Positions 4,848 through 32,000 of a stretch of 32,000 nt of DNA are shown in pieces (the stretch's first letter is position 1; each line of letters opens with the position of its first letter). Under the pieces are notes generated by a model, which was not told the DNA's origin, did not search any database, and worked only from the letters and a program-made list of their open reading frames with translations. Source of the DNA: Candidatus Electrothrix sp. GW3-4 (GTDB taxonomy: Bacteria; Desulfobacterota; Desulfobulbia; Desulfobulbales; Desulfobulbaceae); the NCBI RefSeq assembly GCF_037902255.1, contig NZ_CP147990.1, positions 2,520,001 to 2,552,000 of the forward strand, given 5' to 3'. The position numbers and the translations under genes are program-made.

Positions 4848-5259
4848 CATACTGATTCAGATCATTCGCCGCGTAGCCGACCGAGGTATAGGTTCCCGTG
4901 TTGATGAGTTTTTGATCCGGCGGAACAGGCAGGGAGATGGAAAAGGCATCCCCGGAGGTCGTCATGGTTTTTCGACACCCTATATCGTCATGCGTATAAT
5001 CGTACTGTGAAATTGTTGCGGAGTTATAGGTATTCAGTACAGAGGTTTTCAGGTTACGATGGGGTTCATAGGAATAGCCTGTTGATGCACCGGTACCGAA
5101 GGTTGCGCTTTTCAGCAGGTGCGAGTTCGGCTCGTAGCCGTACTGCACAGTATCGCTGTGCGTACCGATATTCCAGGAAACACCTCCGAAGCGTCCGGTG
5201 CTGTCATAGCCATAGGTGACGGCATAGCTGCTGTCCGTGCTGAAGCCGGTGTTTCTGCC
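4848..5259 (-). pseudogene. internal Rhs/YD core fragment (module J), no toxin tip
   Basis: Nearly identical by eye to 14712..15105 of module D (offset 9846). It translates as ...VQYGYEPNSHLLKSATFGTGASTGYSYEPHRNLK...NDLNQY. Both ends are non-homologous junctions: the IS256 remnant on the left and the region downstream of the immunity gene on the right. Confidence 0.85.
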
Positions 5260-5345
5260 TTTTTCAAAACAACAAAGGCAGGAAAGATTGACTCTCTCCC
5301 GCCTGTTGCTACTTGGATGGTGAAACAGTTATCTCATTCAGTCGA

Positions 5346-5786
5346 TTAATAATTCTGAATAGAAAAACGACTATCCTGTTCTGCGACCTTTAACCACCAT
5401 CGTTTGCCATGCTGTACTGAAAACCCTTCCAGCTTGGATGAATCAACTTGCACCATTCCTCCTTCTCTTAAGTCTTCAGTATCCCAGCCGATCATAGTCA
5501 CCTCGTTATCGGTAACAGAAATAATTACATGCCCATTGTTCACCACAGAAGGATTGTCCAGGTCATACCCGCAGTGCCGAGAAATAATATAGATCGGAGA
5601 ACTGGGGCCCCGACTTCGAATATCAATATCGTGAGAATAGCGTTGTATTATTTCAATATCGGTACGTTCAGGTTCCGCATGGCATCCCGCAATAACGAGG
5701 AAAAACAGAACCAAGGCGTTTCCCTTCACGGCCCGGCTGCAAAGCCACCAGAGCATCCGGGAAAGAACATTAAAAACTGCATTCAT
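5346..5786 (-). CDS. putative lipoprotein immunity protein for the module I toxin
   Basis: The ATG at 5786 lies 2 nt after the rhs stop codon (5789-5791), with GGGAGA 6 nt upstream. The N-terminus ...GNALVLFFLVIAGC carries a lipobox-like VIAG/C. The gene sits directly downstream of a toxin tip. No family recognised. Confidence 0.65.
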   Translation of the reverse strand: MNAVFNVLSRMLWWLCSRAVKGNALVLFFLVIAGCHAEPERTDIEIIQRYSHDIDIRSRGPSSPIYIISRHCGYDLDNPSVVNNGHVIISVTDNEVTMIGWDTEDLREGGMVQVDSSKLEGFSVQHGKRWWLKVAEQDSRFSIQNY

Positions 5787-5788
5787 GC

Positions 5789-29763: not shown

Positions 29764-30174
29764 TTAAAGATAACGATATCCTTCCGCCGGATAGTCAATT
29801 TTCAGTCCTTTCGTGTGATAAACTGTGATCTTCTTTGAATCATTATCTACTTTCAATATCGTTTTATAACTATTATAAATACCGCTTTGAATGATGACCT
29901 CAAAAGAGCCGTCCTTGTCAATATCAGTGCATTCTACTTCTAAAACATCACCAGATATCGTAGGACCGTCTTTTCGATTACCCTCACTGTCTTCATGGTA
30001 GAAGATGATCGTGTCCCATGAAGACGAAGATGCACCATTATCATATTCATAACGAAATCCACCAGCCTTCATGTCTCCACATTTATTTTTACAAGCGATA
30101 GGAAAAATAAAGAAAAACAAAATCAAAAAAATAGCCCGACCCTCTTTATTCAACCTGCTTTTATCTTTATACAT
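29764..30174 (-). CDS. putative lipoprotein immunity protein for the module A toxin
   Basis: A 136-aa ORF starting 8 nt after the rhs-A stop. Hydrophobic N-terminus with a lipobox-like FPIA/C. AT-rich. Confidence 0.6.
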   Translation of the reverse strand: MYKDKSRLNKEGRAIFLILFFFIFPIACKNKCGDMKAGGFRYEYDNGASSSSWDTIIFYHEDSEGNRKDGPTISGDVLEVECTDIDKDGSFEVIIQSGIYNSYKTILKVDNDSKKITVYHTKGLKIDYPAEGYRYL

Positions 30175-30182
30175 AGCACATT

Positions 30183-32000
30183 CTATTTTATATATTTCTC
30201 AATAAACCGAAATTTATCTGGATCTAATTCTCCAGGATCTAACGGAACAACATCGGGAAGATTACTTGAATTATCACGCCATAATGCCGTCTGTTCTGGA
30301 CTTAGATTTCGTCTTGACGAACCGCCTGCTCTATTCCAAAAATGTTTTTTCCCCTCTCTTAGCCAACTAACTAGTAGTTCGGTATTTCTTCTACTGTATC
30401 CACAACAGAAATGCCCTTTTAAATCTACCATTGCATCAAGAACAAAATTAATGGTCAGGTTAACAGTTCCTGCATCTGTTGTTAAACTCTTTGCGACATC
30501 GTTTATTTTTCTACTTTTTGACGAACTAAAATTATACCCCATATAATTGAGAGCCGTTATTAAATTAATATTTGCTGGTCCAAGATCATGCCTTCCTGCG
30601 TGAACTTGGGTCACTGCTTTTTGAGCAACATTCCCTCGTTTCCAAGATTCATCTATCCACCCAACTAAGCCTTGTGTTCCTGGAATCATATGTAAGCCTG
30701 TTCCTGCTGTAACGTCTTGTAGATAATCATATATCCCCTTTAGTCCTATTTGAGTTGAATATTCATCCGCTATAAATTTTAACGAGGTCGCACGAAATAA
30801 CATTTTACAACTTACAGAGGAAAGACCACCTAATTGACATTTTTTATCAACTCCTTCTCTTACCATTGGAGATAGTTGTCGTATTTTATTTTTAACTTTG
30901 CTTGAATACTCCTCAAGCCCCAAATAATCCCATCCATTAATCCCATCATTCCCCACAAACCCATACAGATTCAGTCCGCCATCTTCCCCAATAGGATCCC
31001 TGCTCAACCACCGGCCAAGCTCAGGGGAATAATACCGATACCCGTAATAATACAACCCCGTCACACCATCGGCATACTTGGAGCTGAACCTGAACGGATT
31101 GGTCTCCGCATAGCTTCCCATAGCAGAAGTCAGGCCGCCGAAGGGTGCGTATTCGTAGGCGGCGGCCACAGAACCGTCCGAGCTGTCGAGGAGCTGGCCT
31201 ACGTTACCGTTGGCGTCATAAAGATAAACGTGAACTTTATCCGCCCCGTGATCAATCCGGGCTAAGATACCTCCAATACCTCCGGCACCCTGCAACGACT
31301 GACTCAGATCAAGGCCGTAGACATAACTCGCCGTAACAGCTCCGGCCCCGTCCAGTTCCTCAATCAGGTTCCAGCCGTCGTAGACAAAGAAGCGGGTTTC
31401 ATCAGCTTGCCAAGTTGAGCCGTCCCAGGCAGTTGTAATTTTCCGCGCTCTGCGGCCCATGTAATCATAAAGAAACTCAAGCTTCTCATCCCCGACAGCC
31501 GGTGTTTTCGGGGTAATGGTGATGAGCCGGTTCTCTTCGTTCCAGCTATAGGTGAAGGTTCCGTCGTCGGTAAGGCCGCCGTCGTTATCATACGCCGGAC
31601 TGGCCGCTGCCCCGTTCGTCTCCACGGAAGTATACTGATTCAGATCATTCGCCGTGTAATCGACCGAGGTATAGGTTCCCGTGTTGATGAGTTTCTGATC
31701 CGGCGGAACCGGCAGGGAGACGGAAAAGGCATCCCCGGAGGTCGTCATGGTTTTCCGACGCCCTATATTGTCATGGGTATAGTCGTACTGTGAAATTGTT
31801 GTGGTGTTATACGTATTCAGTACAGAAGTTTTCAGGTTACGATGGGTTTCGTAGGAATAGCCTGTTGATGCACCGGAGCCAAAGGTTGCGCTTTTTAGCA
31901 GGTGTGAGTTCGGCTCGTACCCGTACTGCACAGTATCGCTGTGCGTGCCGACATTCCAGGAAACACCTCCGAAGCGTCCGGTGCTGTCATAGCCATAGGT
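30183..32000 (-). CDS. Rhs/YD-repeat protein, module A (partial; continues beyond the right edge), with an unassigned 243-aa toxin tip
   Basis: The frame stays open to position 32000 (..TYGYDSTGRFGGVSWNVGTHSDTVQYGYEPN..). The core end is DPIGEDGGLNLYGFVGNDGINGWDYLGL. The tip spans 30186..30914. Confidence 0.85.
   Translation of the reverse strand, partial: TYGYDSTGRFGGVSWNVGTHSDTVQYGYEPNSHLLKSATFGSGASTGYSYETHRNLKTSVLNTYNTTTISQYDYTHDNIGRRKTMTTSGDAFSVSLPVPPDQKLINTGTYTSVDYTANDLNQYTSVETNGAAASPAYDNDGGLTDDGTFTYSWNEENRLITITPKTPAVGDEKLEFLYDYMGRRARKITTAWDGSTWQADETRFFVYDGWNLIEELDGAGAVTASYVYGLDLSQSLQGAGGIGGILARIDHGADKVHVYLYDANGNVGQLLDSSDGSVAAAYEYAPFGGLTSAMGSYAETNPFRFSSKYADGVTGLYYYGYRYYSPELGRWLSRDPIGEDGGLNLYGFVGNDGINGWDYLGLEEYSSKVKNKIRQLSPMVREGVDKKCQLGGLSSVSCKMLFRATSLKFIADEYSTQIGLKGIYDYLQDVTAGTGLHMIPGTQGLVGWIDESWKRGNVAQKAVTQVHAGRHDLGPANINLITALNYMGYNFSSSKSRKINDVAKSLTTDAGTVNLTINFVLDAMVDLKGHFCCGYSRRNTELLVSWLREGKKHFWNRAGGSSRRNLSPEQTALWRDNSSNLPDVVPLDPGELDPDKFRFIEKYIK
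31471..32000 (-). repeat. partner copy of 11384..11913 (may extend beyond the window)
   Basis: See the partner entry. Confidence 0.8.

Follow-up and report, generated by a model that had tools for sequence, protein, structure and literature searches.

A probable orphan-cassette array of Rhs toxin genes in the chromosome of the cable bacterium Candidatus Electrothrix sp. GW3-4

The closed chromosome of the cable bacterium Candidatus Electrothrix sp. GW3-4 (named Ca. E. antwerpensis; 4,642,691 bp) carries a long succession of partial rhs genes. It was analyzed in a 32,000-nucleotide stretch of contig NZ_CP147990.1, here called the window, in which the succession fills positions 4849-32000 (about 27 kb) on the minus strand as segments arranged head to tail. 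Seven modules bear a toxin tip (A, B, C, E/F, D, H, and I), and two core fragments, G and J, are tipless. The locus is probably an orphan-cassette array of an Rhs (YD-repeat) polymorphic toxin locus, with a history of displacement, a role as a reservoir of tips, and immunity genes that have been kept. Each cassette would be the remaining 3' portion of an rhs allele that was once full-length, with a shell-encoding core, the DPxG core end, and the tip in that order, and would be followed by its immunity gene. In the GenBank record of GW3-4, the proteins are WYD82549-WYD82565, with locus tags WGN25_11315-11395.

N-terminal truncation of the modules

Several domain matches place the array in the Rhs family. 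RHS/YD repeats (Pfam PF05593) are found in modules I, H, D, and B and weakly in E, module D matches TIGR01643 (NCBIfam) and, at residues 1022-1100, the RHS repeat-associated core TIGR03696 (86 bits against a cut-off of 32.5), and homologues of the array proteins carry PF25023 (TEN_YD-shell). All seven modules have the core-end motif DPIGE.GG.NLY.F..N, behind which come 160-245 residues of tip.

Full-length homologues of the array proteins have 1800-2100 residues. One of them, P0003 (1918 residues, core end at about residue 1649), served as the reference onto which the modules were mapped by tblastn. All modules begin at P0003 residue 366 or later, and the N-terminal secretion/trafficking region is therefore absent from each. 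Since the start points are all internal, every module is 5'-truncated, as a preliminary description of this DNA had claimed; the order and sizes given there (4.5, 2.1, 1.8, 3.8, 2.9, and 3.9 kb for B, C, E, D, H, and I) were also right. The mapping shows cassettes that lack the predicted signal peptide and about 365-1130 N-terminal residues of their full-length relatives, and by this comparison the modules are fragments of Rhs family members, not complete members. The features of the array, in minus-strand order, are these.

30183..32000 (minus): module A, 3' part, leaving the window; gene P0001/WYD82565, 1230 residues, 5'-truncated; core from about P0003 residue 677; core-end motif DPIGEDGGLNLYGFVGN; tip ~30186-30914
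29764..30174 (minus): immA, immunity candidate, 136 residues; hydrophobic N-terminus; WYD82564; short-read contig L001 at 100%
25265..29763 (minus): module B; core from P0003 residue 366; frameshift near 29372; tip ~25268-25870
24700..25278 (minus): immB, immunity candidate, 192 residues; lipobox LLSC; AGGAG Shine-Dalgarno; contigs L130-L132 at 100%
24668..24692 (minus): repetitive extragenic palindromic (REP) element at the immB/C junction; ATCAACGGGGTCGGACTCGATTGAT
22543..24663 (minus): module C; core from P0003 residue 1129; tip ~22546-23065; WYD82559, 700 residues
22064..22534 (minus): immC, immunity candidate, 156 residues; signal-peptide-like N-terminus; contig L136 at 100%
20263..22056 (minus): module E/F, 5' part; core from P0003 residue 1100; 2-nt T-run insertion near 21552; first 38 tip residues
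18922..20262 (plus): insertion sequence (IS) element of the IS3 family; orfA 18982-19323, orfB 19397-20152
18918-18921 and 20263-20266: IS3 target duplication AGCC, 4 bp
18256..18921 (minus): module E/F, 3' part of the tip; frame open up to the IS
17857..18186 (minus): immF, immunity candidate of the E/F tip, 109 residues; close match after an intact tip in contig L139; contig L137 at 100%
17390..17854 (minus): fragment G, tipless core, P0003 residues 1096-1250; directly after immF
17277..17301 (minus): REP element at the G/D junction; ATCAATGGTGTCAGACTCGATTGAT
13486..17271 (minus): module D; core from P0003 residue 564; tip ~13489-13975
13052..13486 (minus): immD, immunity candidate, 144 residues; ATG after GGAGG; lipobox IVSC; WYD82551; contig L138 at 100%
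12998..13024 (minus): degenerate REP copy at the immD/H junction
10132..12993 (minus): module H; core from P0003 residue 939; tip ~10135-10825
9747..10112 (minus): immH, immunity candidate, 121 residues; transmembrane-like N-terminus; contigs L133-L135 at 100%
9697..9721 (minus): REP element at the immH/I junction; ATCAATAGGGCTAGGCTCAATTGAT
5789..9691 (minus): module I; core from P0003 residue 596; tip ~5792-6485 with GDSL/SGNH lipase-type domain
5346..5786 (minus): immI, immunity candidate, 146 residues; ATG after GGAG; lipobox IAGC
5276..5304 (minus): terminator-like hairpin after immI; 12-bp stem and T run
4849..5259 (minus): fragment J, terminal tipless core, P0003 residues 1290-1412; 97.8% identical to D

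The protein of module A is matched over its last 605 residues (626-1230) by window positions 32000..30186 at 100% identity. This module is the most upstream, and its annotated start is a GTG at core position ~677, so that it is truncated as well. No truncated rhs frame has an ATG with a convincing Shine-Dalgarno sequence, in agreement with the earlier claim that starts preceded by a ribosome-binding site are lacking; GTG and TTG codons are present.

The nature of the missing part can be read from the full-length relatives, which begin with a Sec-type signal peptide followed by about 500 residues, in some of them with thrombospondin-type calcium-binding repeats. Because these relatives begin with signal peptides and gave no match to a PAAR domain, the family is a Sec-exported Rhs type rather than a PAAR effector of a type VI secretion system (T6SS). 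No T6SS genes are found in the window. The preliminary description had noted the absence of a PAAR or secretion-adaptor region; an N-terminus is indeed absent from all modules, but the part to be expected there is a Sec signal peptide with its ~500 residues, not PAAR.

Two of the frames are interrupted by frameshifts, in B within a GGGG run near 29372 and in E by the 2-nt insertion in a T run near 21552. A GGGG run is a classic Nanopore error site. Both frameshifts lie in homopolymers of a Nanopore R9.4 assembly and may be sequencing errors rather than signs of pseudogenization.

Toxin tips and immunity candidates

There is no pairwise similarity among the seven tips, nor among the seven small open reading frames (ORFs) that follow them. 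Tip I is of the GDSL/SGNH lipase type (Pfam Lipase_GDSL_2, 36.9 bits against a cut-off of 32.9). Besides this match, the Pfam search of the tips recognized no domain, an NCBIfam search of tips I, B, A, and H gave no match, and neither did a PDB sequence search with tips A, B, H, and D. A hydrophobic N-terminal segment is present in all seven immunity candidates and a lipobox-like motif in four, and immB, immD, and immI have a Shine-Dalgarno sequence and an ATG. The GC content of tips and immunity genes is 34-42%, compared with 52-58% in the cores, and by this difference they look foreign. Because the immunity candidates look exported and tip I is GDSL-type, the toxins probably act in the envelope or periplasm.

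The predicted site of action bears on a different explanation of the array, in which the truncated modules would be expressed from internal promoters and non-ATG starts as intracellular pairs resembling toxin-antitoxin systems. Main and orphan Rhs C-termini of Salmonella offer a precedent (PMC7043789), the frames are long and intact, and GTG and TTG codons are available to start them. However, export or lipoprotein signals in 7/7 immunity candidates, together with the lipase of tip I, point to envelope targets beyond the reach of a cytoplasmic product. The candidate starts also lack a Shine-Dalgarno sequence, and the promoter-like matches are consensus matches only, with no internal promoter identified. 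Intracellular pairs are accordingly a very unlikely use of these modules.

One tip is split in two. The preliminary description listed a module E, cut at the IS, and a separate orphan tip F. The annotated 'tip F' of 137 residues is only the end of a frame that stays open for 86 more codons, up to the IS. In homologues of the extended ORF, a DPxGL core end is immediately followed by the sequence NEV(I/V)(I/V)SGG...G.ELPA...G-(A/F)P(V/I)AHDRNW, which corresponds to the cut tip of E plus the upstream part of F. Protein P0211 (ENA, >90% identity) runs ...ARILRALGFPIAHDRNW... uninterrupted across the E/F split, and its contig, L139, aligns to window positions 21261-20263 and 18921-17594 with a 4-nt overlap. 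Since the L139 allele is uninterrupted, E and F are one module with an IS at 18922-20262 and the target duplication AGCC, and an independent orphan tip F was rejected. Of the claim of at least eight modules with seven tips, the seven unrelated tips stand, but with E and F joined the array consists of seven tip-bearing modules and two fragments.

The inserted element belongs to the IS3 family, as judged from Pfam HTH_Tnp_1 and rve matches, an NCBIfam IS3 match of 270 bits, and inverted ends. It has an orfA with a helix-turn-helix domain, an orfB with a DDE rve domain, terminal inverted repeats, and the 4-bp target duplication.

The rejoined E/F tip (window 18256-18921 plus 20263-20380) is a member of an unnamed family of toxin domains, about 250 residues long and widespread (P0124-P0202). 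The family counts 80 representative proteins at E up to 1e-3, is found after Rhs and other polymorphic-toxin cores, and has invariant His-Gly and Cys residues. An AlphaFold model of the tip is confident (pLDDT 91) and matched no solved fold at E<0.1; the arrangement of His and Cys is a weak hint of a caspase-like site.

Recombining cores and junction elements

Any account of the array depends on its being real. The GW3-4 genome is a Flye assembly of Nanopore R9.4 reads that was polished with Illumina reads from amplified filaments (PMC11247825), and self-BLASTN finds co-oriented repeats of 0.4-3.2 kb at 72-98% identity within the array. With such a source, the array might be an assembly or polishing artefact built from fewer true copies, and mis-polishing is in principle a possible source of the exact 1.5-kb tracts that copies share. 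Yet over most of their length the copies are 10-28% different, the tips are unique, and a divergence of 12% cannot become identity through mis-polishing. Moreover, six junctions were recovered at 100% identity in independent short-read contigs from three sequencing runs and one ENA assembly (29683-30963, 24544-26008, 21892-23872, 17610-18950, 12919-14131, and 9539-10876). Each of these stretches covers a tip and its immunity gene together with 80-240 nt at the start of the next module, except that 17610-18950 instead reaches the IS end. The immF/G junction is also present in the related contig L139. An artefact, which the preliminary description had named as the outcome that would undo it, is largely refuted and extremely improbable.

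The cores have diverged in a manner typical of coding sequence under constraint. Between module cores, the ratio of nonsynonymous to synonymous divergence (dN/dS) is 0.12-0.22 at a dS of 0.35-1.3. Because dN/dS is low at substantial dS, the cores diverged under purifying selection, as parts of working genes rather than as silent DNA at this site, and the simplest setting for this is separate lineages.

Superimposed on this divergence are exact repeats. Positions 15158-16723 of D and 7674-9239 of I form an exact direct repeat of 1566 bp, whose flanks are just 59-88% identical. H (11384-11913) and A (31471-32000) share an exact tract of at least 530 bp, H and E share tracts of 259 and 220 bp, and D and J share one of 258 bp. 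Exact tracts in otherwise diverged cores indicate recent gene conversion or duplication among cassettes. The core homology, 72-98% over 1-3 kb with exact tracts of up to 1566 bp, is sufficient for homologous recombination, and the exact tracts are efficient deletion substrates; recombination across the D/I repeat, for example, would delete 7,484 bp with tip D, immD, module H, and immH. The kilobase-scale direct repeats that had been proposed as recombination substrates are thus real.

A second kind of repeat marks the junctions. A 26-nt imperfect palindrome with the consensus ATCAATGGGGTCAGACTCGATTGATT is found at the immH/I, G/D, and immB/C junctions, and a degenerate copy at immD/H. The copies are single, have the same orientation at all four junctions, and each adjoins the start of a truncated core. 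Exact-arm matches in the window number 3, against 0.44 expected by chance. In D and C, nucleotide homology begins 4-5 nt after the 3' end of the palindrome, and in I and H that end adjoins the first protein-level similarity, whereas the distance from the palindrome to the upstream stop codon is variable (7-88 nt). Under a random spacer model this placement has a chance of about 1 in 1000, a post hoc figure from four cases.

Exact pattern matches revealed the same near-invariant motif in more than 120 metagenome contigs, often as inverted doublets and often just after a stop codon. About 28 of these loci have a Y1_Tnp gene, for a REP-associated tyrosine transposase (RAYT), next to the motif, and in some (for example L064, L012, L011, and L072) inverted copies flank the gene; the L064 ORF matches PF01797 at 5.5e-15. 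Because it is multi-copy and occurs as inverted copies around RAYT genes in metagenome contigs, the junction palindrome is a REP element. An integron attC or Xer/dif-type site was rejected given this link to RAYT genes, and a known RNA was rejected given the lack of any Rfam match in the window. No RAYT gene is present in the window. Among loci L010-L129, the 26-mer is almost invariant, while the RAYT proteins are 34-99% identical to that of L064 (most 45-70%). The inverted doublets in metagenome contigs are spaced 10-110 nt apart.

REP elements that accompany RAYT (Y1/IS200-like) transposases have the same palindrome, but unlike them the GW3-4 copies are single, co-oriented, and located at rhs core starts. 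It is conceivable, if quite unlikely, that the REP acts as a right-hand cassette boundary. It could then be a portable 3' homology arm that, with the conserved core as the 5' arm, serves to exchange tip-immunity cassettes between cable bacteria, or else the place where DNA was broken or joined, through a hairpin or RAYT cleavage, when cassettes were captured. If true, this would be a case of REP-assisted building of polymorphic-toxin arrays.

Displacement history and relation to known arrays

A 'C-terminal displacement' model has been put forward for orphan rhs-CT/rhsI arrays that lie downstream of a main rhs gene in Enterobacteriaceae and Snodgrassella alvi (PMC3150448, PMC3967940, PMC5727410). 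Applied to GW3-4, the model would have cassettes arrive or be displaced sequentially through homologous recombination in the conserved core. The retention of 1.6-4.5 kb of core could result from unusually long recombination tracts or from Campbell (single-crossover) integration. The cassettes would at present not be exported toxins, whereas their immunity genes, all with export signals, may still be useful against envelope- or periplasm-acting toxins of neighbours. RecA-type recombination between cassettes, and likewise with a full-length copy if one exists, would reshuffle the tips. Ordinary decay and rearrangement would account for the IS3 element within the E/F tip and for fragments G and J.

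Expression of the immunity genes would probably come from transcription through the array up to a single terminator after immI. The hairpin at 5276-5304, a consensus match that lies before fragment J, is the sole strong terminator-like one on the array strand. Its position suggests either one long transcription unit or a terminator imported with cassette I, and with a lone terminator after immI, transcription could read through the entire array.

Several observations weigh against the displacement and reservoir account. The array contains no full-length, signal-peptide-bearing rhs gene in its 27 kb, module A being truncated as well. The upstream expressed gene to which tips could be fused, as the preliminary description envisaged, was therefore not seen in the array. 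When the N-terminal stretch of B and an N-terminal profile were used to look for a GW3-4 protein that has the missing region, none was found, but these searches were insensitive, returning two unrelated matches each and missing known homologues. Because no full-length rhs gene was seen, the reservoir role lacks a demonstrated acceptor. In addition, the immunity function of the small ORFs is deduced from position only, promoter-like matches are at chance level in 4400-18400 and above the shuffle mean in 17000-32000 (consensus matches, with no promoter identified), and intact ORFs as long as 1269 codons are a little unexpected if the DNA is silent.

Some of these points would suit an immunity island, or graveyard, in which the functional full-length rhs gene is gone and a decaying array is kept solely for immunity to toxins of other cable bacteria while its cores are being lost. 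With A truncated, at least 27 kb and a further 1.9 kb are without an N-terminus, the searches gave no GW3-4 protein that has this region, one tip contains an IS, B and E have frameshifts, and G and J are tipless. Nevertheless, no stop codon interrupts five of the long frames, the B frameshift may be an error given its homopolymer setting in a Nanopore assembly, and the exact tracts imply that recombination is still active; the negative N-terminus searches missed even known homologues. Such an island is an unlikely alternative, and a displaced-cassette reservoir with retained immunity genes is preferred.

Comparison with arrays in other bacteria supports the claim that the modules are of the orphan rhs-CT/immunity type. 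Like those of Enterobacteriaceae and S. alvi, they are co-oriented, 5'-truncated rhs genes with a distinct tip after the DPxG core end and an immunity gene of their own, with low-GC tips and immunity genes and with shared core homology available for recombination. The array also closes with a tipless fragment, as in S. alvi Rhs8/Rhs9 (PMC5727410). It differs from them in having no full-length gene within 27 kb, a family with a Sec signal peptide instead of a PAAR/T6SS N-terminus, a cable bacterium (Desulfobulbaceae) as host, and REP elements at four junctions. The architecture is confirmed as the established orphan-cassette layout; the retained cores are unusually long, the host group is new, and the association with REP elements may be meaningful.

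Both the number of modules and the length of their cores had been called unusual. The number is ordinary, with up to 11 rhs orphans reported in Salmonella (PMC7043789) and 18 rhs genes at three loci in S. alvi (PMC5727410). The cores are indeed much longer than in the arrays compared here, at 1.6-4.5 kb against about 0.5 kb in Salmonella, where main and orphan rhs share 522 bp of homology (PMC3967940).

Two further arrays are closer in sequence. A Victivallales chromosome (OY787460, L005) has an array with a homologous core, 42-46% identical in amino acids to that of GW3-4, in which co-oriented orphans with non-ATG 'starts' likewise lie downstream. Unlike in GW3-4, the full-length P0033 (1825 residues, with a signal peptide) heads the array, and the orphans have just 334-504 residues. 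L139 (ENA ERZ25039514 contig_74574), probably from another Electrothrix, matches GW3-4 at 98% nucleotide identity over the E/F tip, immF, and the first part of G, and the immF/G junction is common to both sequences at that identity. Unlike in GW3-4, its tip is free of an IS, its E/F module retains just about 1 kb of core, and the neighbouring modules upstream and downstream are different ones. Because the neighbours and cores differ in L139, cassette order and truncation points vary between close relatives. The L139 orphans have 442-451 residues, and the one of 451 residues has a weak DUF6861 match.

The literature searched holds no link of cable bacteria to Rhs or other polymorphic toxins. 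Cable bacteria form centimetre-long multicellular filaments in crowded sediments. Here a single species has at least seven toxin/immunity pairs of a Sec-type Rhs family, apparently directed at the envelope and with signs of frequent exchange and recombination, and the locus is a concrete start for asking how filaments distinguish kin from competitors. For specialists in Rhs systems, two features are of note, the unusual length of the core that the modules retain and the presence of REP elements at junctions.

Just downstream of the array, positions 707-4426 (minus strand) encode a protein of 1239 residues whose N-terminal segment is hydrophobic and which has right-handed beta-helix repeats (PF13229, 2.2e-30).

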